A stretch of DNA of 64,000 bases from Patescibacteria group bacterium (lineage in GTDB: Bacteria; Patescibacteriota; Doudnabacteria; UBA920): assembly GCA_013387205.1 (NCBI GenBank), contig WARV01000008.1:64136-128135 (forward strand), given 5' to 3'. Below the pieces are notes generated by a model that worked only from the letters and a program-made list of their open reading frames with translations, was not told the DNA's origin and ran no database searches. The position numbers and the translations under genes were made by a program. Positions 27,494-58,500 of the stretch are shown one piece after another. Position 1 is the first letter of the stretch; every line of letters starts with the position of its first letter.

Positions 27494-29101
27494 ATGCTAA
27501 ACAGGATTAAAAACATCGAAGCGAATTTTTCAATATCCAAAGCCGCGTTCATAATAGGCTTTTTTACGCTGCTGACAAAGTTTTTGGCTATTTACCGCGA
27601 GAGGCTGTTTGCATCGACCTTCGGGCAAAACCAAATTCTGGATTCTTATTTCGCGGCGTTCAGGATCCCTGATTTCGTGACAAACTTATTCATATTAAAC
27701 ACGCTTGCCGTTGCTTTTATTCCGGTTTATACGGAAATTTTAACCAAAGACAAAAAGAAGACCGATGAAATCGCGGCGTCCATCCTTAATTTGGTCCTTT
27801 TGGGGATTTCCGGCATTTGCCTTATTTTATTTTTGTTTTCGGGTTACTTAACACAAAAATTAGTCCCCGGTTTTAACCAGGAATATTACAGCTACACGTT
27901 GAATTTAACCAGGTTGTTTTTGCTCTCTCCGGTAATTTTTGCGGCATCCACAATCTTCGGCGGAATTTTGAACGCACAGAAAAAATTCCTTGTTGCGAGT
28001 ATTGCGCCGATATTTTACAATCTGGGAATTATCTTCGGGGTAATATTTTTATATCCTCGTTTTGGCGTAATGGGCTTGGGGTACGGGGTGGTACTGGGTG
28101 CAATTGTCCAGATGCTCATCCAATGGATCAGCACAAGCCAGATTGGATTTTCCATAAAGCCTATTTTAAACTTTAAGGATAATTACGTCGTCAGGATTTG
28201 GAAACTTTACGTACCAAGGATTTTTACGTTCGATTTGGCGAATGTCACGCTGCTGCTTGGTACAATGATCGGGTCAAAACTGATTGCAGGTTCCATATCC
28301 GCGTTAAACCAGGCTTACAATTTAGAATCAGTTCCCGTTAGTATTTTTGCCTACTCATTGGCCCTGGCTTCGTTTCCGGTACTTTCTGAATTTTTTGCGC
28401 TTAAAAATGACAGGGCTTTTACAAAATCAATATCCCAAACAATACAGCAAGTTCTATTTTTCATTATCCCAATATCGATTTTAATGCTATTGATGAGGGC
28501 GTATATTGTCAGGCTTATTTTAGGAGCCGGGAATTTCAACTGGGAAGATACCATTAGGACCTTTAACGTGCTGGGAATTTTCAGCTTTTCCCTGTTCAGT
28601 CAAAGCCTTACGACGGTCCTTTCCAGGGCTTTTTACGCCAGACAAAATACAAAAGTTCCGGTTTACATCAACTTGTTTGCCATTTTCTTAAATATTATTT
28701 TCTCCGTAATATTAGGATACAAGTATGGAGTAGCCGGGATTACGGCGGCATTTGTGATTTCCAGCATCGTAAGCGCGATTTTATTGTTTATTGTCCTAAG
28801 GCACCATTTGAAGGATTCGCTCGGCGAGGAAAATATTGAAACCTTAAAAGAGTTCGACCAAAACTTGTCCAGTTCCGTAACAAAGATAATTATTTCCAGT
28901 ATTGTTATGGGCTTGGTCAGCTATGCATCCATTTACTTTCTGGCGCCTTTTGTTGACACCAGGACTGTTGTCGGGATTTTAATCCAATCCGGCTTGGCCA
29001 GTATTTTCGGCGGTATCTGCTATATGCTTACAGGAAAGCTTTTAAAACTGACTGAGGCCAAATATATGCTGGATTTCTTTCGCAAATTACTGTATATTTA
29101 A
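27494..29101 (+). CDS. murJ: Lipid II flippase MurJ
   Basis: N-terminus LAIYRERLFASTFGQNQILDSYFAAFRIPD; 14 TM helices. Confidence 0.85.
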   Translation: MLNRIKNIEANFSISKAAFIIGFFTLLTKFLAIYRERLFASTFGQNQILDSYFAAFRIPDFVTNLFILNTLAVAFIPVYTEILTKDKKKTDEIAASILNLVLLGISGICLILFLFSGYLTQKLVPGFNQEYYSYTLNLTRLFLLSPVIFAASTIFGGILNAQKKFLVASIAPIFYNLGIIFGVIFLYPRFGVMGLGYGVVLGAIVQMLIQWISTSQIGFSIKPILNFKDNYVVRIWKLYVPRIFTFDLANVTLLLGTMIGSKLIAGSISALNQAYNLESVPVSIFAYSLALASFPVLSEFFALKNDRAFTKSISQTIQQVLFFIIPISILMLLMRAYIVRLILGAGNFNWEDTIRTFNVLGIFSFSLFSQSLTTVLSRAFYARQNTKVPVYINLFAIFLNIIFSVILGYKYGVAGITAAFVISSIVSAILLFIVLRHHLKDSLGEENIETLKEFDQNLSSSVTKIIISSIVMGLVSYASIYFLAPFVDTRTVVGILIQSGLASIFGGICYMLTGKLLKLTEAKYMLDFFRKLLYI

Positions 29102-29106
29102 TGAAT

Positions 29107-29231
29107 ATGGAATTAAACAATATCAGGAATTTTTGCATAGATTCTTCATTATTTTCTCTCCTAGCAGGAGAGATAGCCTGAAAGGCTAGAGAGGTTGAAC
29201 CGTTGTTCATCGTAATAAACAGATAATATTT
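29107..29231 (+). repeat. Duplicated lepA 5' end (33 nt, 28/33 identical) followed by an inserted hairpin element (tctctcctagcaggagaga)
   Basis: atggaattaaacaatatcaggaatttttgcata at 29107, versus atggaactaagtaacatcaggaatttttgcata at 29232. Confidence 0.6.
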
Positions 29232-31061
29232 ATGGAACTAAGTAACATCAGGAATTTTTGCATAATCGCTCATATTGACCACGGCAAGTCCACTTTAGCT
29301 GACCGGCTTTTAGAAATTACCAATACGGTATCCAAACGTGAAATGAAAGACCAGATACTTGACCAAATGGATCTTGAGCGCGAACGCGGTATTACCATCA
29401 AATTGCAACCCGTTAGGATGGAATATAAAATTCCAAATAAAATCCAAGATCCAAATTCCCAAACCTTAAATCCTAAATCTTATATCTTAAATTTAATCGA
29501 CACACCGGGCCATGTGGACTTTACATATGAAGTTTCGCGCTCTTTAGCCTGCTGCGAAGGCGCAATTTTAGTTGTAGACAGCACCCAAGGAATCGAAGCC
29601 CAGACTTTGGCTAACGTGTATCTAGCCTTAGAGCACGATTTAACCTTGATTCCGGTTGTCAATAAAATTGACCTGCCGAATTCCGACAAGAAAAAAACCG
29701 CGGAAGAATTAAAAGCGGCCTTTGGATTTACTGATAACGAAATTTTATATGCTTCGGGAAAAACCGGCGAAGGCGTGGAAGGAATTTTAGATGCCGTGGT
29801 GGAACGCGTTGCTCCGCCAAAAGGCGAAAGCAGCAAAGCTTTAAGAGCTTTGATTTTCGATTCGGTTTACGATATTCACCGCGGAGTTATCGTCTTTGTC
29901 AGGATTATGGACGGACAGCTTTTTCCGCGCGAAAAAATATATATGCTCGGTAGCGAAACCCAGGCAGAGAGCCTTGAGGTCGGGTATTTCCATCCAAAAA
30001 TGGAAAAAAGCGGACAATTGAAAACCGGAGAAGTCGGGTATATTGTCACGGGATTGCGGGATGTAAGCAAAGCCAGGGTCGGGGACACAGTCACGCTTTG
30101 GGAAATTCGCCAGGAAGCATTGCCGCTTCCAGGATACAAGCAGATTAAACCAATGGTTTACGCGACAATTTTCCCGGTTTCAGGAGACGACTATCCGCTG
30201 CTTCGCGACGCAATGGAAAAATTAAAGCTTTCAGATTCAGCTTTGGAATTTGAACCTATAAACATCCCTTCAATCGGCTTTGGATTCAGGACTGGCTTTT
30301 TAGGGCTTCTACACATGGATATTGTGCAGGAGCGTCTTAGCCGCGAGTATGATTTGGATTTGGTACTCACTGCACCATCTGTGGCTTACCGCGTAGTAAA
30401 AACCGATAATACGGAAATTTATATCCATAACCCGGCAGAATTCCCAGACCCATCAGTCATAAAAGAACTGTACGAGCCGTGGATGATGGTAAATATTTTA
30501 ACCCCGTCCGATTACATTGGCCCGATTATGGAAATTGCCACGCAGCGCAGGGCGATATCTAAAGACATTAAATACATCGGCAAAGACAGGGTGGATATGC
30601 ATTTTGAAATGCCTTTGGCTAATATTATTTTGGATTTTTATGATAAGTTAAAGAGCGTGTCTTCTGGTTATGCTTCTTTAAATTACGATTTTATCGAAGA
30701 AAGAATTGGGGATTTGGTCAAAGTTGATGTTTTGGTCGCAGGCGAGCCTGTTCCGGCATTGGCAGCGATTATGCATCGCAGCGTCGCGCATGTGGAAGGG
30801 AAAGAACTGATTGAAAAATTAAAGAAATTGATTCCGCGCCACCAGTTTGAAATCGCGCTTCAGGCTGCAATCGGCGGAAAAGTCATTGCGCGCGAAACCA
30901 TTTCAGCCTTGAGAAAAGACGTTACCGGCTACTTGTATGGTGGCGACGTCACCCGTAAAATGAAACTTTTGAACAAACAGAAAAAAGGCAAAAAGAGAAT
31001 GAAAAAAATCGGGAAAGTAGATATACCGCAGGAAGCCTTCCTCGCTGTGCTTAAAAAATAA
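29232..31061 (+). CDS. lepA: Elongation factor 4 (LepA)
   Basis: NFCIIAHIDHGKSTLADRLL; DTPGHVDF. It has an insertion of about 10 aa before DTPGH. Confidence 0.9.
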   Translation: MELSNIRNFCIIAHIDHGKSTLADRLLEITNTVSKREMKDQILDQMDLERERGITIKLQPVRMEYKIPNKIQDPNSQTLNPKSYILNLIDTPGHVDFTYEVSRSLACCEGAILVVDSTQGIEAQTLANVYLALEHDLTLIPVVNKIDLPNSDKKKTAEELKAAFGFTDNEILYASGKTGEGVEGILDAVVERVAPPKGESSKALRALIFDSVYDIHRGVIVFVRIMDGQLFPREKIYMLGSETQAESLEVGYFHPKMEKSGQLKTGEVGYIVTGLRDVSKARVGDTVTLWEIRQEALPLPGYKQIKPMVYATIFPVSGDDYPLLRDAMEKLKLSDSALEFEPINIPSIGFGFRTGFLGLLHMDIVQERLSREYDLDLVLTAPSVAYRVVKTDNTEIYIHNPAEFPDPSVIKELYEPWMMVNILTPSDYIGPIMEIATQRRAISKDIKYIGKDRVDMHFEMPLANIILDFYDKLKSVSSGYASLNYDFIEERIGDLVKVDVLVAGEPVPALAAIMHRSVAHVEGKELIEKLKKLIPRHQFEIALQAAIGGKVIARETISALRKDVTGYLYGGDVTRKMKLLNKQKKGKKRMKKIGKVDIPQEAFLAVLKK

Positions 31062-36986: not shown

Positions 36987-37062
36987 GCCGGCTTAGCTCA
37001 TCTGGTAGAGCAGCGGTATCGTAAACCGCAGGTGGTCGGTTCAAGTCCGACAGCCGGCTCCA
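36987..37062 (+). tRNA. tRNA-Thr (anticodon CGU)
   Basis: Manual cloverleaf: acceptor GCCGGCT/AGCCGGC, D arm GCTC/GAGC, anticodon loop ATCGTAA, T loop TTCAAGT, CCA end. Confidence 0.8.
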
Positions 37063-49468: not shown

Positions 49469-51145
49469 ATGGACAACGCTGAAAACCCGAACTCAAATAA
49501 CAGCAATCCCCTTTTGACCACTAAAGATTTAGTCAGCCTTTTGTCATCTAAGTTCCAAAGAAATGAGCAAGTAAGGGATACTAGCAATTACAGGTATGTC
49601 ATATACGCTAGAAAATCGACGGAGAACGCCGAAAAACAGGTCAGGTCGCTATCTGACCAAGTTATTGAATGTAAGCAATTAGCCGAAAAGGAAAACTTAA
49701 AAATTATATCGGTTATCACCGAATCGGAATCGGCCAAAGAGCCGGACATTCGGCCAAAGTTTCGGCAGATGTTGGAAGATATGAAAAGCGGAAAATTTGA
49801 GGGGGTAATTGCGTGGCATCCTGACCGGCTGGCGCGTAATATGAAAGACGCCGGTGAGATTATAGATTTGCTGGACAAGGAACTTATTAAAGATTTAAGG
49901 TTTGTCAGTTACGTTTTTGTAAACGATACGGCCGGCAAAATGATGTTGGGTATTTCTTTTGTCCTGTCTAAACAGTATTCGGACAAGTTGAGCGACGATG
50001 TTTTGCGAGGCAATAAACGGAGCATTGAAGAGGGTAAATATCTTGGCCGCGTTAAACACGGCTATTACAAGGACGCAAATCAATTACTGCGGCCGGACGG
50101 CGATAATTTCCTTCTTATAAAGCAAGCCTTTCAATTACGGCTACAAGGTAAAACGATTGACGAGATTAAGGACTTTTTACACGCGCATAATTATTCGCTG
50201 CGGCAGCCCAACGGCCAGCATAAACTTTACAGGATAGATAAAAAGCGTGTTTCGGACTTTCTTAAAGACCCAGCCTATACTGGCGTGCTTATACGTGGCG
50301 ATAACATTGTGGATTTAACCGAAAAATACCAATTCGTTCCTGTTATTTCGGTAGATGACTTTTTAAAAATTAACAAACTCACTCTGTCCAAAGCGTTTCG
50401 CTTGGTCAAGAAATTCTATCCGCCTAATAAGATTAAAGCCGACCTGTTTCGGGGTTTGGTAACTTGCGGTGAATGTAACGAAATTATGTCATCGGGAATT
50501 ACAACCAAGCCCAAAGTCGGCAAGTCTTATTTTTACTTTCGTTGCGAAACTGACCGCTGTCCGGTAAAAGACAAATCCGTTAGGGCTAAAGTTATTGTGG
50601 ACTCGGCTTGCGAGTATTTAGAGCAAAATCAATTTAGCAGCCCAAAAGCCTATGAGCATTATAAAAAGGAATCGGCCAAAGTTTTTACCGAGCGACTGGC
50701 TGATGTTAAAAAGCAGCACGATGTTTTAGTGGCTTCCAAGCGTGAGGGTGAAAAGCGGCTATCTAAAATTAAAGACTTCTTGCTAAAGGAAGATGACCAA
50801 GCGCTAAGGGAATCATTTAAGGCCGATTTAGCCACAAAAGAAAAAGAATTAACAGAACTGGCCGAGCAAATATCCAAACTCAAAGCAGCTTTGCACACTA
50901 AAAAGACGGCGATTTTAAATTATCCGCAGTTTCTCGAACTTTTAGTTAAACTGCCCGTGGTTATTAGACAAACTAAGAATATGCAGGACTTAGACTTCCT
51001 TATACGAAAAATCTTCTCGAACTTTATTATCAGCAAACAAAAAACGGCTCAAATAAAACTAAATGAACCGTTTAATGCCCTCCTTGGGGTGGCAAAAATG
51101 CCCGAAAGTATACAATGGCGGGGACGGCGGGGCTCGAACCCGTAA
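49469..51145 (+). CDS. Large serine recombinase (resolvase catalytic domain, recombinase domain and zinc ribbon)
   Basis: YVIYARKSTENAEKQVRSLSDQ (catalytic Ser); HPDRLARN; CGECN ... C ... C zinc ribbon; 558 aa. The last 10 codons are antisense to tRNA-Asp. Confidence 0.8.
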   Translation: MDNAENPNSNNSNPLLTTKDLVSLLSSKFQRNEQVRDTSNYRYVIYARKSTENAEKQVRSLSDQVIECKQLAEKENLKIISVITESESAKEPDIRPKFRQMLEDMKSGKFEGVIAWHPDRLARNMKDAGEIIDLLDKELIKDLRFVSYVFVNDTAGKMMLGISFVLSKQYSDKLSDDVLRGNKRSIEEGKYLGRVKHGYYKDANQLLRPDGDNFLLIKQAFQLRLQGKTIDEIKDFLHAHNYSLRQPNGQHKLYRIDKKRVSDFLKDPAYTGVLIRGDNIVDLTEKYQFVPVISVDDFLKINKLTLSKAFRLVKKFYPPNKIKADLFRGLVTCGECNEIMSSGITTKPKVGKSYFYFRCETDRCPVKDKSVRAKVIVDSACEYLEQNQFSSPKAYEHYKKESAKVFTERLADVKKQHDVLVASKREGEKRLSKIKDFLLKEDDQALRESFKADLATKEKELTELAEQISKLKAALHTKKTAILNYPQFLELLVKLPVVIRQTKNMQDLDFLIRKIFSNFIISKQKTAQIKLNEPFNALLGVAKMPESIQWRGRRGSNP

Positions 51146-51192
51146 CCTCTCGCGTGACAGGCGAGTGCTCTAACCAATTGAGCTACGCCCCC
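51116..51192 (-). tRNA. tRNA-Asp (anticodon GUC)
   Basis: Manual fold: GGGGGCG acceptor, D arm GCTC/GAGC, anticodon loop CTGTCAC, T loop TTCGAGC, CCA end. Confidence 0.8.
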
Positions 51193-51268
51193 AAATATTA
51201 AGTTCTAAATCCTAATTTCTAAACTCTAAATATTGCTAAAGGATATGGCCAAAGGCCAGACGAAGCTT

Positions 51269-51345
51269 TAGCGAAGTCTGGTGCCGGAGGGTGGAATTGC
51301 ACCGCCGACCTTGGGCTTATGAGTCCCACGCTCTAACTAACTGAG
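51269..51345 (-). tRNA. tRNA-Met or tRNA-Ile2 (anticodon CAU), with an atypical T arm
   Basis: Acceptor GCCGGAG/CTCCGGC, anticodon loop CTCATAA, CCA end. The T loop TGCAATT has one stem mismatch. Confidence 0.6.
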
Positions 51346-51465
51346 CTACTCCGGCTTATTGCTGTTTAAACTAAAACCCTCCGGACAGAGGGTAAAAATC
51401 TGTCACGATTTTCAGGTTTTTAACCTAGTCAGTTTTCCATATCCATAATTGATGAAAAACTAGCT

Positions 51466-51541
51466 TGGTTGCGGGACCCGGACTCGAACCGGGAACCTCA
51501 AGGTTATGAGCCTTGCGAGCTGCCAATTGCTCTATCCCGCG
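51466..51541 (-). tRNA. Initiator-like tRNA-fMet (anticodon CAU) with a C1:A72 mismatch
   Basis: CGCGGGA ... TCCCGCA-A-CCA, anticodon loop CTCATAA, T loop TTCGAGT. Confidence 0.7.
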
Positions 51542-53263: not shown

Positions 53264-53586
53264 AATAGCCCATGCGCTGCACTGCCTCATTTGGTGGCAA
53301 TGTTTTAAATTGGTATAATAATTTCAGCCATTTTGCCGCGAAATCCGTCTTAACTATCAAAAATAAACCCCGCACAACCTGATTTATCTATTTTTACAGC
53401 AATAAATATCAACAAAGAAGATTACTATCAAACACAAAGATATTTAAAAATACTTAATTTAAAGTTAGGATTAATAATTAATTTTCAAAGCTTATATTTA
53501 AAACCTCAAAGGGTGATAAATTTTTTAAAAATTAATTTTCCGAAGTTATTTCGCAGATTCGAATAATTTCGAAGTTTCGAACCATT

Positions 53587-54105
53587 ATGCCAATTAGAAA
53601 TCCTGACCAAAGAGTCGGAGTGTTCGTGGATGTGCAGAATTTATATTATTCTGCACGCAATATTTACAACGCCAGGGTAAAATTTAATGAAGTTTTAAAC
53701 GAGGCCGTGGCAGGGCGCAAACTTATCCGCGCTATTGCCTATGTCGTGGAAGCCAACATGCCGGAAGAGCACACGTTTTTTGAGGCTTTGGAAAAGGCTG
53801 GCTTTGAAGTTAAAAGAAAAGAACTGCAAACCTTTGCCGGCGGCCACCAAAAAGGCGATTGGGACGTAGGGATAGCTATGGACATCGTAAAGTTAATGAA
53901 TAAACTGGATGTCGTGGTGTTGTGTAGCGGCGATGGCGATTATGTTCCACTTTTGGAATACATGCAAATGTCCGGGCAATTTACGGAAACCTTAGCATTT
54001 GGCAAATCGTGCAGCGGAAAAATTAAAGAGCTGACCGATTATTTCATTGACCTTGATGAAAACCCCAGAAAATTCTTAATGCCAATTCGTAACGGAAGGA
54101 AATAA
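53587..54105 (+). CDS. NYN-domain (LabA/DUF88-like) putative RNase
   Basis: VGVFVDVQNLYYSAR ... VVLCSGDGDYVPLL. Confidence 0.65.
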   Translation: MPIRNPDQRVGVFVDVQNLYYSARNIYNARVKFNEVLNEAVAGRKLIRAIAYVVEANMPEEHTFFEALEKAGFEVKRKELQTFAGGHQKGDWDVGIAMDIVKLMNKLDVVVLCSGDGDYVPLLEYMQMSGQFTETLAFGKSCSGKIKELTDYFIDLDENPRKFLMPIRNGRK

Positions 54106-54136
54106 ACCGACCCTAAAATTTACATGTTTGTTAGCC

Positions 54137-54179
54137 CTCTTCTCCTAGCCAGGAGAAGAGATGGAGATGAGGTCGAAAC
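54137..54179. repeat. Left bracket of the DUF559 cassette: 10-bp-stem hairpin ctcttctcct-agcc-aggagaagag plus inverted repeat gatgaggtcgaaac
   Basis: Read directly from the sequence. The partner on the right is at 54530-54577. Confidence 0.6.
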
Positions 54180-54530
54180 ATGACAACAGACCCAAATTTT
54201 GTAAAACTATCCAGGCAGTTAAGAAAAAACCAGACACCTTGGGAAAAGAAATTATGGATGCACTTAAAGGGCAGTAAGTTTTATGGTTATAAGTTTAAAA
54301 GGCAGACAGTAATCGGCTCATTTATTTATGACTTTAGCTGCTTTGAAAAGAAGCTTCTAATTGAGCTAGATGGTTCCCAACATACAAATGATGAGATAAA
54401 GCATAAAGACCAGGCAAAAGAAGACTTTGCCAGAAAGCTAGGCTATCAGATACTAAGATTTTACAATTACGATATTGCTAATAACCTCGAAGGTGTATTA
54501 GAAAAAATAGAATTAACAATCAACCGCTAG
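54180..54530 (+). CDS. DUF559 endonuclease-domain protein (Vsr/PD-(D/E)xK-like)
   Basis: LR.NQT.WEKKLW.HL ... KFKRQ ... IYDF ... LLIELDG.QH ... ILRFYNYDI, the DUF559 pattern; 116 aa. Confidence 0.65.
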   Translation: MTTDPNFVKLSRQLRKNQTPWEKKLWMHLKGSKFYGYKFKRQTVIGSFIYDFSCFEKKLLIELDGSQHTNDEIKHKDQAKEDFARKLGYQILRFYNYDIANNLEGVLEKIELTINR

Positions 54531-54577
54531 TTCGACCTCATCCGGCCTGCGGCCACCTTCTCCTTGCCAGGAGAAGA
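54530..54577. repeat. Right bracket: inverted repeat gttcgacctcatc, a GC hairpin, and hairpin cttctcct-tgcc-aggagaag (which provides the ribosome-binding site for the PIN gene)
   Basis: Reverse complement of the left bracket (13/14 and 8/10). Confidence 0.6.
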
Positions 54578-54587
54578 GGAAAAATAC

Positions 54588-55037
54588 ATGAAAATTGTTT
54601 TAGACACAAATGTCCTGATTAACGGATTTAAAGATGATTACTCCTTTGAAAAACGCATCATAGACGAGGTTTTGGAAGGAAAGTTACAGGCCTATGCCAA
54701 CAGGCAAACATTGCGTGAAAATAGGCTAATTTCCTCGCAATTGATAGATAACGACGAATACAGGCACCAATTAGACGATTTATTTAGCAAAATCCATTGG
54801 GTTGTTAACCGTAGGCAAATTCATGTAGTTGACGATCCTGAAGATAACAAAATATTGGAAAGTGCTGTTGAAGCCGAAGCGGATTATTTAATTACCAGCG
54901 ATAACGACTTGCTAAAACTAAAAGCATATCAAGACATAGAAATAGTAACCCCATCCCAGTTTTGGTCCAAATACAAAGACGAAGGCAATGACTTATGGAA
55001 GCAATGGACAAACTTCATTAGAAATGACAAAAATTAA
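54588..55037 (+). CDS. PIN-domain nuclease (VapC-like toxin family)
   Basis: MKIVLDTNVLI ... and a later ITSDNDLL acidic motif. The start was trimmed to the ATG 8 nt after the AGGAGAAGAGG site. Confidence 0.6.
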   Translation: MKIVLDTNVLINGFKDDYSFEKRIIDEVLEGKLQAYANRQTLRENRLISSQLIDNDEYRHQLDDLFSKIHWVVNRRQIHVVDDPEDNKILESAVEAEADYLITSDNDLLKLKAYQDIEIVTPSQFWSKYKDEGNDLWKQWTNFIRNDKN

Positions 55038-55069
55038 AAAAATGACAAAATTGACAAAAATAATCAAAA

Positions 55070-55457
55070 ATGGAAAAAGACTTTAAAAATTGGTTACATA
55101 AAAAAGAAAATATACACAACTGCAAATCCTAGGCCTTATTATCACGAACGGGAAATCTGGTATTGTTCTTTTGGTATAAATGTCGGTTTTGAGCAAGACG
55201 GCAAAGGAGAAGATTGTTTCAGGCCCGTTTTAATATTTAGAAAATTCAATAATGAAATTTTTTGGGCAGCACCGTTAACATCGGCGCTCAAGAATTCACC
55301 ATACTATCAAATTATAAAGTTTAGCGATAGGCAAAGTTCAGTAATTTTATCACAAATTCGTTTGATTGACGCAAAAAGATTGGGCTATAAAATTGGCACT
55401 TTGGATAAAAACCAATTTTCTGAAACAATAAAAAACCTCAAAGCATTACTGCCTTGA
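55070..55457 (+). pseudogene. MazF/PemK-family mRNA-interferase toxin gene with a +1 frameshift (or sequencing error) in an A-run near the 5' end
   Basis: ATG frame gives MEKDFKNWLHKKENIHNCKS followed by TAG. The +1 frame continues as PRPYYHEREIWYCSFGINVGFEQDGK ... VLIF ... AAPLTSA ... ILSQIRLIDAKRLGYKIGTL, which aligns with MazF. Confidence 0.55.
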
Positions 55458-55530
55458 GCTTTGCAATTTTAACCCCCGCCGAAGCGGGGTCGGGCCGAAG
55501 CCATTTAGTAACTATATTGTACACCCTTTT

Positions 55531-58500
55531 ATGACGTTTGTCAAGAATAGCGACTTACTTGAAAATTTAAACAAAGAACAAAAAGAGGCTGTTGTTCATA
55601 AAGATGGGCCGCTTTTGATTGTGGCTGGGGCAGGCACGGGTAAAACCACAGTAATCACCAGAAAAATCGCGCACTTAATTGAACAAGGCCAGGCCAAGCC
55701 TGATGAAATTTTAGCTTTGACTTTTACGGAAAAAGCTGCCGGGGAAATGCAGGAACGCGTGGATATTTTATTGCCTTTGGGCTATCACGACTTGTGGATT
55801 TCTACTTTTCATAGCTTTTGCCAAAGAATTTTGGAGCAGCATGGCTTGGATATTGGCCTTCCGGGCGATTTTAAAATACTAACCGACGTCCAACAATGGG
55901 TAATGGTGCATAATAATTTGAATAAGTTTAATCTTGATTATTATAGGCCCCTGGGCAACCCCAAAAAATTCATTTCTGCGCTTTTAAAACATTTTTCCAA
56001 ATGCAAAGACGAGCTGATTACTCCTGGAGAATATTTAAATCATGCTGAAAGCCTGAGGCTTGGGACTGATCAACCTTCGAAAAAGAAAAGTAAAAATGTA
56101 GGGGCGGATCTCATCCGCCCTAAAATCGGGAAGGTAAGATCTTCCCCTACAACTACTGCATTAATCGAACAACCTGTTGCAACTGAAGACATGGATGAAA
56201 CTGAAATCTTCAGGCTGGAAGAAGTAGCCAATGCTTACCACACTTACCAAAAAATGCTTTTGGACGGCAATTTCCTGGATTTTGCGGATTTGATAAATTA
56301 TACTTTGGAACTGTTTAAAAAGCGCCCTAAGATCCTCGAGTATTACCAAAACAAGTTCAAATATATTTTGGTGGATGAATTCCAGGATACCAATTACGCC
56401 CAGTACCAGCTGGTAAAAATGCTGTCTGGCAACAATGGAAATTTAACCGTGGTTGGCGATGACGACCAGTCCATATATAAGTTCCGCGGCGCCAGCGTCT
56501 CCAATATCTTAAAATTCCAAGAAGATTACCCCAAACTAAAACAAATTACCTTGGTGGAAAATTACCGGAGCAGCCAGGAAATTTTGGATTTGGCTTATAA
56601 TTTTATCCAATTAAACAATCCGGACAGGCTGGAAGTTAAATTAAAAATCGACAAGAGGTTAAAATCTTCAAATAAAACGGATGCGGTAATTCAAGTTTTA
56701 GAAGGCAAGGATTTAAGCGACGAACTGAATTCTGTCGCAAAAAAAATCTTAGAATTGAAGGAAAACAATAAGGATTCGACTTGGAACGATTTTGCCGTTT
56801 TAATCCGCAGCAACTCCGCGGCAGACGAATTATTACCCATACTTTCTTCATACAACATCCCGCATACCTTTGTTGCCAATACCGGGCTTTACAAAAAGCC
56901 GCTAATCGCCAGCTTAATAGCTTATATCAAGCTTTTGGATAATTTCCACGATTCATTCAGCCTTTACAGGGTGCTATGTTTTGCTGATTTTGGGATTAAG
57001 CCTGATGAAATTTCCACAATGCTGGAAAACTCAGCCAAAAAAACCTTGTCTTTGTATGAAATTTTGCAGGTAGCGGATTTAGACCCATCCTTGAGTAGCG
57101 AGACTAAAGCAAGCATAAAAAAGTTTGTTTCTTTCCTGCATAAGCATGCCGATTTGGCGCAAAGCAAATCCGCAACCGAATGCTTTGTCGACATTGTCTC
57201 AGACCTGCATTTGCAAAAAAAACTCCAGGCGCAGAATTTGGAAAACGCGGAAAACCGCGAACTGCTCGAACAATTTTACAAAAAAATAGAAAATTTCACA
57301 CAGGAAAGCGCAGACAAAAGCATTCATTATTTTATCCATCTGCTGGATTTGGAAATGGAGGCAGGGGACGAAGGACAGATAAAATTCGACCCGAACCTGG
57401 GCCCGGAAAGCCTTAAGGTTTTAACTGTGCACGCGGCCAAAGGATTGGAATTTTCCCATGTATTTATTATCAATATGGTTGACCAAAGGTTTCCGACCAG
57501 AGCCAGGAAGGATTCCATAGAAATTCCGACAAGTTTGGTTAAAGACATTTTGCCGGAAGGGGACTTCCACTTACAGGAAGAGCGCAGGTTATTTTACGTT
57601 TCACTAACCCGCGCTAAAACGAATTTATATTTAAGCTGGGCCAAAGATTATGGCGGAAAAACCTTAAAAAAACCCTCGCAATTTTTAGTTGAAGCTAAGC
57701 TGGTGCCAAGCGAAAAAGTATCCGCCGCCACAGGAAAAGTCATTTTCACCAAACCCGCGCCGCAAAAGATAGTTTTCCAGCAGCTGCCAAACAGTTTTTC
57801 TTTTTCCAAAATCAAAGCATTTAAAAATTGCCCGCTTGAATATAAATATAGATATTATTTGAAATTCCCTACCAAGGGCAATCGGTATTTAAGCTTTGGA
57901 CAAACCATCCATTTAACCTTTGAACAATTTTTAAAGGATTATTTAAAAAGGCTGAATTCCAAGCAGCAGGATTTATTTGGAAATACGCCCGGCAAAATTG
58001 AAATTGGAAGCCGTGAATTTTTAGAGCAGCTTTACCATCAAAATTGGATTGACGAATGGTACCAAAGCAAATCGCAAAAAGAAATGTACAGGAAGAGAGG
58101 ATTAAAGATGCTCAGGACATTTTACGATTACGCTTCGCAAAATATTCCAGCGCCAAAATTCATTGAGCAGAGCTTTAATATGAAAATTGACAAGTATTTC
58201 TTTAACGGCAAAATCGACAGGGCAGACCTGCTCCAGGACGGCAGGATAATGATTTTGGACTATAAAACAAGCGAAAAAGTGCCAAAAAAAACAGACAAAG
58301 ACGACTTAGACCAACTGTATATTTACCAATGGGCGGCTCAGGAGCACCTGAATGAAAAGGTGGGCGGTTTGGCTTATTGGTATTTGGACGAAAATAAATT
58401 TGTCCAGGAAGAAGTGGCGCCTGAAGAAAAAATCGCAAAACTTAAAAACGATCTTTTAGAAACCATTGAAAAGATTATATACACAATAAAGTACGATTTA

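Follow-up and report, generated by a model that had tools for sequence, protein, structure and literature searches.

A DUF559 nuclease gene bracketed by triplex-type repeat modules suggests a partner protein for BoxC/PIT/TM repeats

Results

A DUF559 endonuclease gene lies between two inverted modules

The window, by which we mean the whole 64-kb stretch of DNA analysed, carries a small nuclease gene placed between an NYN gene and a PIN_3 gene and bracketed by two repeat modules in inverted orientation (Table 1). The 351-nt ORF opens with the ATG at 54180 and closes with a TAG whose last base, at 54530, touches the right inverted-repeat arm. Its assignment to DUF559 in the initial annotation is borne out by Pfam, in which PF04480 scores 115.3 bits against a cut-off of 20.6; the same search of the protein gives no Vsr match, only DUF559 plus a sub-threshold MTES_1575. 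Residues D51, E62, D64 and H68 fall in columns that are invariant among 26 compared sequences, and the D...ExD..H criterion is met. A search of the PDB with the protein returns 3HRL, an uncharacterised structure, as its sole match, and no homing enzyme.

Table 1. Positions of the genes and repeat features discussed in the text
Feature	Position	Strand	Remarks
Direct repeat of the lepA start region, 41 nt, 83% identical	29099-29139 and 29224-29264 (span 29099..29264)	+	Flanks the insert with the solo module
Solo module, same family	29155..29195	+	8/8 stem pairs; 8/8 triplets, P 0.00175
NYN gene, upstream	53587..54105	+	Host backbone; 92-96% identical in relatives with other genes in the NYN-PIN slot
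Left module	54137..54173	+	10/10 stem pairs; 10/10 G*G:C, A*A:T, T*A:T triplets; P 0.0005
Left inverted-repeat arm GATGAGGTCGAA	54166..54177		12/12 complementary to 54531-54542; overlaps the left third segment
DUF559/YcjD-family PD-(D/E)XK (Vsr-fold) endonuclease gene, 116 aa	54180..54530	+	PF04480 E 1.6e-33; PDB 3HRL E 1e-19
Right inverted-repeat arm TTCGACCTCATC	54531..54542		Begins one base past the stop codon
Right module	54535..54579	-	9/9 triplets, P 0.00065
PIN_3 gene, downstream	54588..55037	+	Host backbone, outside the cassette; RBS within the right module

The initial annotation had described this gene as bracketed by hairpins and an inverted repeat, and a coordinate check located all of these elements. 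On the left, the pyrimidine arm CTCTTCTCCT (54137-54146), an AGCC loop and the purine arm AGGAGAAGAG (54151-54160) form the 10-bp stem that had been proposed. They are followed by an ATG loop and by GAGATGAGGT (54164-54173), which includes a GAGG resembling a Shine-Dalgarno (SD) sequence, 7 nt 5' of the start codon. On the right, the plus strand reads CTTCTCCT (54557-54564), TGCC, AGGAGAAG (54569-54576), a hairpin with 8/8 pairs, preceded by the GC mini-hairpin GGCC-TGC-GGCC (54544-54554); both had been predicted. Read on the minus strand, the right module has the order CCTCTTCTCCT, GGCA, AGGAGAAGG, a second loop TGGCCGCAGGCC that holds the mini-hairpin as GGCC-GCA-GGCC, and a third segment GGATGAGGT (54535-54543); this long-loop variant also occurs in two related loci, L083 and L085. 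The inverted repeat joining the two flanks is real over 12 of 12 ungapped positions, while the 13/14 match first reported is reached only with one indel.

A third copy of the hairpin had been placed at the 5' end of lepA, and it is indeed found there (29155-29173), inside an 84-nt insert. The complete solo module reads TCTCTCCT, AGC, AGGAGAGA, a second loop TAGCCTGAAAGGCT with a mini-hairpin, and AGAGAGGT (29188-29195). When lepA relatives were searched for an empty site, the best was only 77% identical and none had a module at this place. Second loops measure 12 and 14 nt in the right and lepA modules, both with a mini-hairpin; the two loops of the left module are 4 and 3 nt long.

What the initial annotation missed is the third segment. 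In all three modules of the window the purine arm is followed by its own mirror image, with A or T facing A, and the match is significant in each (P <=0.002 against random window segments). As far as can be judged from sequence, the hairpin and its GATGAGGT flank are thus one unit, of the BoxC/PIT/TM class of intrastrand triplex repeats. Given the pyrimidine and purine arms and the mirrored third segment, such a single strand can fold into either a hairpin or an intrastrand purine-motif triplex. The 64 kb contain no module of 9 nt or more besides these three, and none appeared in ten block-shuffles. The hairpin pattern is met twice in the window against 0.01 expected. Outside the cassette, the window holds a single solo module.

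The modules also touch the expression signals of the adjoining genes. The left third segment supplies the SD of the nuclease gene, and the plus-strand purine arm of the right module, AGGAGAAGAGG, that of the PIN gene; as had been proposed, its GAGG stands 8 nt before the ATG at 54588. There is no promoter-like site directly upstream and no T-run terminator feature in the flanking hairpins. Folded as RNA, the whole cassette forms a long closing stem (-120 kcal/mol, z -4.3), and the right flank alone folds no better than its shuffles (z -1.3).

Modules accompany DUF559 genes across phyla

For comparison, 80 genome loci from many phyla were picked by protein similarity to DUF559. Since the loci were chosen in this way, the statistics below do not give the fraction of all modules that lie near a DUF559 gene. 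When a strict module detector was applied to 69 DUF559 genes from many phyla, a sense-strand module was observed within 120 nt upstream of 43, an antisense module downstream of 22, and both at 18, with about 0.9 expected by chance per flank over the 69 genes. Module density falls from 6.84/kb within 150 nt of a DUF559 gene to 0.59/kb at 150-500 nt, and past 1 kb it is 0.07/kb, compared with 0.002/kb in block-shuffled sequence; the enrichment near the genes is about 100-fold. Roughly one in three of the sampled genes has no detectable module.

The spacing of inward-facing module pairs in the 80 loci is bimodal. Eighteen pairs are gene-less doublets with gaps of 10-83 nt, 53 pairs have gaps of 317-477 nt that hold one DUF559 ORF each, and no pair has a gap between 83 and 317 nt. 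The ORF lies within 0-11 nt of the inner module ends, and the third segment mostly ends 3-11 nt 5' of the start codon. In Deinococcus the inverted repeat is about 52 nt long and extends past the module. The polarity is not universal: in a few loci and two plasmid examples the third segments face outward. Past the third segment no conserved cleavage-like motif was found, TCGAA being present there in 16 of 246 modules. Repeat sequence that has been translated accounts for many 'extended' DUF559 proteins and for odd peptides such as PLSP..GRGEG, which calls for caution in annotation.

Module type and protein lineage also go together. The modules that bracket a single locus resemble each other more closely than they do those of different loci (permutation P 0.003). 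Two proteins, L039_3992 and L042_4237, are 57% identical and both have the CCCCCTTT module type, while each is only 41-43% identical to a paralogue in its own genome, whose module subtype differs. Judging by these sequences, paralogue lineages each keep their own module subtype across phyla.

Genomic context and possible signs of movement

Homologues that are 67-71% identical are observed between unrelated housekeeping genes. One contig has two copies together with a gene-less doublet, and the doublet is missing from the same gene pair in a relative. The bracket thus exists elsewhere both with and without its gene, a comparison that the initial annotation had called for; brackets around DUF559 homologues occur in many phyla. 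Solo modules and doublets of the same kind are also found at a distance from all DUF559 genes, and even in frame inside a helicase gene.

In the window, the nuclease-plus-repeat unit leaves the NYN-PIN-helicase gene string unbroken, and relatives without the cassette likewise have PIN_3 beside NYN. The NYN-PIN slot of these relatives contains other genes and no module; in locus L087 it contains a 23S rRNA intervening-sequence ORF (PF05635) with a 19-nt inverted repeat of its own. Flanking repeats confined to this locus, with an identical arrangement at the orthologous site of relatives, would have removed the evidence of mobility. Recurring brackets, gene-less doublets, unrelated contexts and the different content of the orthologous slot show that this is not the situation here. 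The comparative data therefore support the earlier suggestion that the gene is carried by, or inserted into, a palindromic repeat, or that the whole is a minimal mobile cassette; actual movement is unproven.

For the gene-carrying unit, the comparison yielded no pair of empty and filled sites whose boundaries could be read exactly; nor was a target-site duplication seen where the unit begins and ends in the window, and Pfam found no transposase domain. Gene-less doublets are present at other sites, but none of the gene-carrying sites had a counterpart with an allelic empty doublet, and the orthologous NYN-PIN slot of relatives holds other genes. The spacers of the doublets vary in both length and sequence and share no conserved target at their centre. 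Plasmids and phages seldom carry the unit: it was found in 36 of 72,556 plasmid records and in 2 of 50,697 phage records. The uninterrupted palindrome GAGGTYGAA-N0-30-TTCRACCTC has 120 matches in viral contigs, none with flanking modules; hence these are taken to be chance hairpins.

ycjD and the repeats of E. coli K-12

The E. coli member of the family, ycjD, ends in a module, and further copies adjoin it. The consensus CCCTCNCCC N3-6 GGGNGAGGG N3 GGGNGAGGG is met there as at many related loci. In K-12, one of the 23 listed TM_ECO copies is near ycjD, and the degenerate module that abuts the gene is not in the list. The gene itself is matched in 5426 of 5426 E. coli genomes, and in both strains examined it is located between sapF and fabI. 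If ycjD is fixed in E. coli, it is not actively moving there, and domestication fits better than a jumping gene.

Published work on the E. coli repeats provides a background for these observations. Four of the five inverted pairs of K-12 face inward with gaps of 16-27 nt (PMC4666352, Table 1). The TM module forms a stable triplex in vitro, as judged by CD and NMR on oligonucleotides only, without an in vivo footprint (Holder et al., PMC4666352). Earlier work found no promoter or terminator activity of TM repeats, and the E. coli loci that carry them are unusually prone to instability (PMC4666352).

Comparison with known systems

The closest relatives of the modules are the BoxC/PIT/TM_ECO repeats (Bachellier, 1990s; Hoyne & Maher 2000; Holder et al. 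2015, PMC4666352), whose origin is unexplained. Both share a pyrimidine arm, a purine arm and a mirror third strand (class II purine motif), and both occur as solos and as close inverted pairs. Most related loci fit the published TM_ECO consensus. The window copies, however, are AT-richer and do not match it, and hence are not TM_ECO sensu stricto; in two of the three the second loop is also of 12-14 nt with a mini-hairpin, compared with the published N3 (TM_ECO loops are N3-6 and N3, and ITxF searches loops of 1-6 nt). The published TM work names no associated protein, says that mobility functions were not found, and makes no mention of ycjD or of an endonuclease (PMC4666352). We likewise found nothing in open-access papers and bioRxiv that links DUF559, ycjD or PF04480 to BoxC/PIT/TM repeats.

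In organisation, the units resemble RAYT genes with their REP and REPIN sequences (Nunvar 2010; Bertels & Rainey 2011, PMC3116915). There too, a usually single-copy nuclease-type gene is flanked by inverted hairpin repeats, the repeat is also scattered over the genome, singly or in inverted doublets, stable vertical inheritance of the gene is seen in some species, and protein lineage and repeat subtype co-vary. The flank criterion of inverted repeats plus gene-less doublets is met by the DUF559 units. Membership itself is ruled out by the protein, a PD-(D/E)XK enzyme of Vsr fold and not an HUH/Y1 (IS200-like) transposase; the modules moreover have an extra mirror third strand, and no activity has been shown.

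Vsr and the Vsr-like homing enzyme I-Bth0305I belong to the same fold superfamily, in the clade 'VSR, DUF559, DUF2726' (PMC3424549). The window protein differs in matching DUF559 only and in lacking a neighbouring cytosine methyltransferase and an intron or intein context; with no Vsr profile match and with NYN and PIN_3 as neighbours, a Vsr/Dcm repair endonuclease was rejected. Like TIR transposons and MITEs, the unit has terminal inverted repeats, here of about 37-45 nt, and gene-less short versions. It was not assigned to them, given the structured-repeat ends, the lack of a DDE or other known transposase domain, and no duplication seen at the boundaries. The intervening-sequence ORFs of 23S rRNA are also small ORFs in inverted repeats, with an unrelated protein, an unrelated repeat sequence and no triplex-type third strand. 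An integron gene cassette was rejected on account of the inverted, not direct, flanks and of the absence of an integrase among the neighbouring genes.

Known structural classes were considered as well. Rfam found only tRNAs, both in the region (E up to 10) and in the whole window (gathering cut-offs), and the hammerhead resemblance of GAUGAGGUCGAAAC is accordingly superficial. Four G3 tracts are present in GC-rich relatives, but the modules of the window keep their mirror symmetry without G-runs; a G-quadruplex is therefore not the conserved feature. Nor is the third segment a direct repeat re-pairing with the pyrimidine arm, as the mirror match outnumbers the direct-repeat match by 162 to 61 across loci.

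Discussion

We see roughly an even chance that this is a compact nuclease-plus-repeat unit which is selfish or was once mobile. The anatomy, the association across phyla, the bimodal spacing, the varied contexts and the absence from the orthologous slot are observed, while the action of the nuclease on its modules, the movement of the unit and the mode of that movement are inferred. The nuclease would recognise the flanking modules, either folded on a transient single strand or as duplex. Nicking beside the modules could then allow module pairs, with or without the gene, to be copied or moved to new intergenic sites, and the gene-less doublets and solo modules would be non-autonomous derivatives. 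Structure-directed nicking is plausible in view of Vsr, an enzyme whose nicking is specific for structures and mismatches. By analogy, the inferred logic would parallel that of RAYT genes with inverted REP sequences and REPIN doublets, a PD-(D/E)XK nuclease replacing the Y1 transposase. Against this reading stands the fact that, to our knowledge, no small DUF559 protein has a known nuclease activity or a known specificity for DNA. The lack of an empty/filled pair and of a target-site duplication, the apparent constancy of ycjD in E. coli, the missing in vivo footprint, the outward-facing brackets, the genes without a detectable module and the choice of loci by protein similarity likewise weigh against it.

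Among the alternatives, a homing-type invasion is unlikely without being negligible. Here the inverted doublet would have existed beforehand, and a free-standing homing gene would have cut its centre and been copied in by break repair. Short-spacer doublets and gene-filled ones with nothing in between would suit this reading, as would an ORF that fits so closely to the inner module ends, and the Vsr-like catalytic domain does occur in a known homing enzyme (Steczkiewicz 2012 table). Yet the doublet spacers offer no conserved central target, outward-facing brackets exist, no gene-carrying site has an allelic empty doublet, ycjD is matched in all 5426 E. coli genomes and is at one site in the two strains examined, and the only PDB match is 3HRL.

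It is quite doubtful that the protein is instead a housekeeping host enzyme that resolves the hairpins or triplexes of the repeats, the nearby modules being incidental (through repeat turnover or action in cis). The instability of TM loci in E. coli (PMC4666352), the match of ycjD in all 5426 E. coli genomes with synteny in the two examined, and a module density that falls smoothly with distance from the gene would agree with such a role. However, it leaves unexplained the precise inverted bracket with its ORF-sized spacing, the cross-phylum co-variation of subtypes, and the presence of the gene with its flanks at different sites in close relatives.

Still less probable is the proposal that the modules are cis-regulatory RNA or DNA signals, which supply the SD, a panhandle that hides it or is cut by RNase III, and 3' stabilisation, other copies being unrelated. 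The position of the third segment before the start codon, the strong fold of the whole cassette as RNA, the SD given to the PIN gene by the right arm and the lack of a promoter-like site directly upstream all speak in its favour. But the downstream copy has its purine strand on the antisense strand, outward brackets give no SD, and the same modules occur far from DUF559 genes; moreover, the mirror symmetry is conserved although, according to the cited literature, RNA does not form purine-motif triplexes. Finally, chance palindromes or ordinary terminators beside an ordinary gene can practically be dismissed: intergenic hairpins are common and the right flank alone folds unremarkably, but the excess of the hairpin pattern, the triplet match in each module, the enrichment across 80 loci and the absence of T-runs are incompatible with such an origin.

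Returning to the nuclease-plus-repeat unit, its recurrence from candidate-phyla bacteria to E. coli suggests that the nuclease is the missing partner protein of the repeats. In its broadest form the proposition is tentative, with slightly more against it than for it: YcjD-family DUF559 nucleases may be dedicated partner enzymes of BoxC/PIT intrastrand-triplex repeats, a second, RAYT-independent system of 'repeat plus domesticated nuclease' that spans candidate-phyla bacteria, cyanobacteria, Deinococcus and proteobacteria including E. coli K-12, and that would explain the origin, spread and instability of repeats that have gone unexplained since the 1990s.

Hundreds of genomes carry BoxC/PIT/TM repeats, with copies in the thousands, but no origin, function or associated protein has been found for them; YcjD/DUF559, for its part, is a very widespread nuclease family without a known role. 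The physical link between the two across phyla gives both a testable function, and E. coli K-12 has ycjD as well as 23 TM_ECO copies. Should the nuclease indeed read the triplex or hairpin in folded form, it would be one of few natural examples of a protein that targets non-B DNA for genome rearrangement, and small repeats would have a further, new way of spreading into genomes.

Anatomy of the bracketed gene

The bracketed gene, which is co-oriented with its neighbours, encodes a DUF559 protein, as the initial annotation had stated (Pfam match, E 1.6e-33). Its best solved-structure match is 3HRL, an uncharacterised "endonuclease-like protein" (E 1e-19), and D51, E62, D64 and H68 are invariant in 26 DUF559 homologues. 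The hairpins, inverted repeat and GC mini-hairpin reported to surround it are likewise all present in the sequence, the hairpin pattern occurring twice in the window versus 0.01 times expected.

After every purine arm comes a mirror-image purine-rich segment, with A or T opposite A; the two arms and this third segment make up what we call a module. The left module reads AGGAGAAGAG, then ATG, then GAGATGAGGT; the right one (minus strand) reads AGGAGAAGG, a 12-nt loop holding the GC mini-hairpin, then GGATGAGGT; and a solo module at lepA reads AGGAGAGA, a 14-nt loop holding a mini-hairpin, then AGAGAGGT. Purine-motif triplets (G*G:C, A*A:T, T*A:T) fit at 10/10, 9/9 and 8/8 positions, respectively (each P <=0.002). 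No further module of this kind exists in the 64 kb, and none arose in ten block-shuffles of the window. The "inverted repeat" GATGAGGTCGAA of the initial annotation is largely the module's third segment.

Features of the window and of comparison loci
Feature	Position	Strand	Remarks
lepA start region, direct repeat	29099-29139 and 29224-29264		41 nt, 83% identical
Fourth tRNA gene	36987-37059	+	
Three clustered tRNA genes	51119-51541	-	directly upstream of RmuC gene
NYN gene	53587-54105	+	upstream of DUF559 gene
Left hairpin	54137-54160		10 bp
Inverted repeat	54166-54177 vs 54531-54542		perfect, 12 nt; hugs DUF559 start and stop codons
DUF559 gene	54180-54530	+	116 aa; full-length Pfam match
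GC mini-hairpin	54544-54554		
Right hairpin	54557-54576		8 bp; purine arm 8 nt before PIN start codon
PIN_3 gene	54588-55037	+	downstream of DUF559 gene; UvrD-type helicase gene next
TGCAG-rich outer repeats, L001	2880-2915 and 3360-3420		
TGCAG-rich outer repeats, L085	1436-1470 and 4960-5200		
Outward-facing third segments, L293	318-763		Synechocystis plasmid DUF559
Outward-facing third segments, L294	316-740		Deinococcus plasmid DUF559

The region upstream of the NYN gene (53350-53550) is very AT-rich (17-25% GC vs ~40% elsewhere) and is possibly the promoter region of the NYN-DUF559-PIN string. The ~490-nt gap between the PIN and helicase genes (55040-55530) has no ORF of at least 40 aa on the gene strand; it contains AT-rich direct repeats (ATGACAAAA...) and a disrupted reading frame containing REIWYCSFGINVGFEQD, a motif that we take to resemble PemK/MazF-type toxins. 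Relatives carry a small gene at this position (a 137-aa ORF or PDDEXK_3), and the gap may be a decayed gene.

The flanks have the layout of a known repeat class

The same layout was described by Holder et al. 2015 (PMC4666352) for a repeat named BoxC in the 1990s, then PIT elements (Hoyne and Maher 2000) and finally TM_ECO, and the window flanks share it. TM_ECO is a class II purine-motif intrastrand triplex with the consensus CCCTCNCCC-N3-6-GGGNGAGGG-N3-GGGNGAGGG, present in 23 copies in E. coli K-12 and 3610 across 262 proteobacterial genomes; the triplex is stable in vitro and has not been detected in vivo (PMC4666352). The same authors associate it with local genome instability, list five closely spaced inverted pairs in K-12, and never found mobility functions nearby (PMC4666352). 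The text of that paper mentions neither ycjD nor any endonuclease.

Modules accompany DUF559 genes across phyla

For comparison, 80 genome loci encoding relatives at 40-60% identity were fetched by way of the protein and not the modules. They come from Saccharibacteria, Doudnabacteria, Melainabacteria, alpha-, beta-, gamma- and deltaproteobacteria, Chloroflexi, Nitrospirota and others; many are MAG contigs, with start codons placed from alignments. With a strict detector, a sense-strand module lies within 120 nt upstream of 43 of 69 DUF559 genes, an antisense module just downstream of 22, and both flanks are occupied in 18, while chance would give ~0.9 modules per flank over all 69 genes; about a third of the sampled genes have no detectable module. 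Module density reaches 6.84/kb in the 150 nt next to the gene, drops to 0.59/kb at 150-500 nt and is 0.07/kb at distances over 1 kb, compared with 0.002/kb in block-shuffled sequence. The third segment ends mostly 3-11 nt ahead of the start codon and thus doubles as a Shine-Dalgarno sequence, and the downstream module mostly begins 0-5 nt past the stop codon. Mirror symmetry wins over a direct-repeat match by 162 to 61 (P ~1e-11), with GGGGGAAGG/GGAAGGGGG and GGGGGAGA/AGAGGGGG as examples that are not self-symmetric. Mis-called N- and C-terminal extensions of database homologues, such as "...REVEx-M" and "...FDLTLPSPCQERRG", are flanks translated through. As far as sequence comparison can tell, the association is general across phyla.

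Outside the modules, loci of Saccharibacteria and other candidate phyla carry short inverted TGCAG-rich repeats, e.g. ACTGCAGACTGCA and CTGCAGCTGCAG, which could represent either a further layer of the element or a target that it prefers.

Module pairs with and without a gene

Pair spacing was measured with a slightly looser detector than the 69-gene count. Inward-facing pairs are strictly bimodal: 18 have a spacer of 10-83 nt and 53 a spacer of 317-477 nt, the length of one DUF559 ORF, with no inward-facing pair in between. Of the K-12 inverted pairs, 4/5 face inward, with gaps of 16-27 nt (Table 1 of PMC4666352). One contig (L085) holds two DUF559 cassettes of different module subtypes and a gene-less doublet between rpiB and rpe; in its relative L084 the rpiB-rpe gap is 66 nt, without a module. 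Outward-facing brackets are a minority that includes the Synechocystis and Deinococcus plasmid copies, the latter with an inverted repeat of ~52 nt reaching past the module. Hence, an inverted arrangement of modules around the gene is conserved, whereas its polarity varies.

Gene and flanks in different contexts

Four comparisons suggest that gene and modules move, or moved, as a unit. Within a locus the two modules are more similar than those of different loci (permutation P 0.003). In two paralogue lineages, moreover, the module subtype stays the same from one phylum to another: the CCCCCTTT-type copies found on one Nitrospirota and one deltaproteobacterial contig share 57% identity, and each is only 41-43% identical to its same-genome paralogue, whose flanks are of the GGGAG(A/G)GG type.

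The closest relatives of the window protein (67-71%) occupy different gene contexts, one between transketolase and a small uncharacterised ORF beside rpe, another between galT and a small ORF adjoining tpiA. Many relatives have an NYN neighbour 92-96% identical to that of the window, in a common gene order RmuC...NYN-[X]-PIN_3...UvrD; slot X is occupied by a 211-aa ORF, a 130-aa ORF or a 23S_rRNA_IVP gene, and never by DUF559 or a module. The initial annotation, which offered a minimal mobile cassette as one possibility, held that flanking repeats absent elsewhere together with an identical arrangement at the orthologous locus would remove the evidence of mobility; slot and contexts both differ, the opposite outcome.

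In one close relative (L087 4020-4482, same in L088) the 23S_rRNA_IVP gene (PF05635) in the NYN-PIN slot is bracketed by its own 19-nt inverted repeat (AACATTTAACCTTTGACAT / ATGTCAAAGGTCAAATGTT, 18/19), and at adjacent junctions others have PDDEXK_3, HepT/NTP_transf_2 or small ORFs of unknown identity; the RmuC-NYN-PIN-UvrD backbone is apparently a hotspot where small bracketed genes collect. One relative also has a consensus module in frame within its UvrD-like helicase (L091 6547-6608, same in L092 3253-3314), where it is translated as ...PSPGPDKSGPPSPNGRGEGEGE... in a hypervariable linker. The equivalent window position (56100-56150) has two small hairpins, GGGCGGAT-CTC-ATCCGCCC and GGGAAG-GTAAGAT-CTTCCC, which form no canonical module.

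At lepA, an 84-nt insert with the solo module separates the two repeat copies. The upstream copy begins a dead 26-aa ORF (29101-29181) overlapping the murJ stop codon, and lepA translation starts in the downstream copy. In 80 lepA relatives (<=77% identity) this position is without a module. The arrangement could reflect a long target duplication, a captured gene end or slippage at the structure.

The E. coli homologue ycjD

The E. coli DUF559 homologue, ycjD, has a match in 5426/5426 complete genomes and lies between sapF and fabI in both strains examined. In strain 042 the end of the coding sequence extends into a consensus module (L081 931-975), and more copies precede fabI; in K-12 the abutting module is partly deleted and has lost the third-strand box that 042 keeps. 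TM_ECO number 9 of Holder et al. (PMC4666352) is 168 nt from the K-12 ycjD stop codon. In the K-12 ycjD-fabI spacer (L082 1821-1965), a 39-nt piece of the ycjD 3' coding end recurs 106 nt downstream at 90% identity, both copies adjoining a degenerate module, a geometry resembling that at lepA in the window.

The 120 best named YcjD relatives come from Escherichia, Shigella, Enterobacter, Kluyvera, Klebsiella, Leclercia and allies, and none from Salmonella, which is reported to lack TM_ECO (PMC4666352). This lends only weak support to a ycjD-TM_ECO link, because most database entries are unnamed. The YcjD subfamily is rare on plasmids (36/72,556 records) and phages (2/50,697 records).

Discussion

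Anatomy, association, bimodal spacing, varied contexts and absence from the orthologous slot are observed, and we consider a linked nuclease-repeat unit their best explanation, at roughly even confidence; small DUF559 proteins have no known activity. The nuclease would recognise its own flanking modules, most plausibly on a transiently single strand that has folded into a hairpin or triplex, and nicking beside them would allow module pairs, with or without the gene, to be copied or moved. RAYT genes, flanked by inverted REPs and accompanied by REPIN doublets, follow the same logic. If fixed and single-copy, ycjD would fit a domesticated state in E. coli, and the copies in candidate phyla give a more mobile impression. 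Movement itself is inferred: for a gene-carrying unit, no exact junction between an empty and a filled site came to light, and target duplications were not observed. In the window, the modules donate the Shine-Dalgarno sequences of both the nuclease and the PIN gene, and no promoter-like or terminator-like sites bracket the cassette, an arrangement compatible with operon expression. Folded as a single strand, the entire cassette forms a long panhandle (z -4.3), which, speculatively, could also limit translation or invite RNase III cleavage.

Invasion of already existing doublets by a homing gene is a possible but distinctly less favoured source of the gene-carrying units. Somewhat less probable again is a host enzyme that processes these structures. 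That the flanks are purely cis-regulatory is improbable. Chance can essentially be dismissed.

The bracket around the DUF559 gene is real, and more general than the initial annotation could see. The repeat class and the protein family are each already known; their tight cross-phylum pairing appears undescribed in open-access papers and bioRxiv, and opens two long-standing unknowns to direct experiment.
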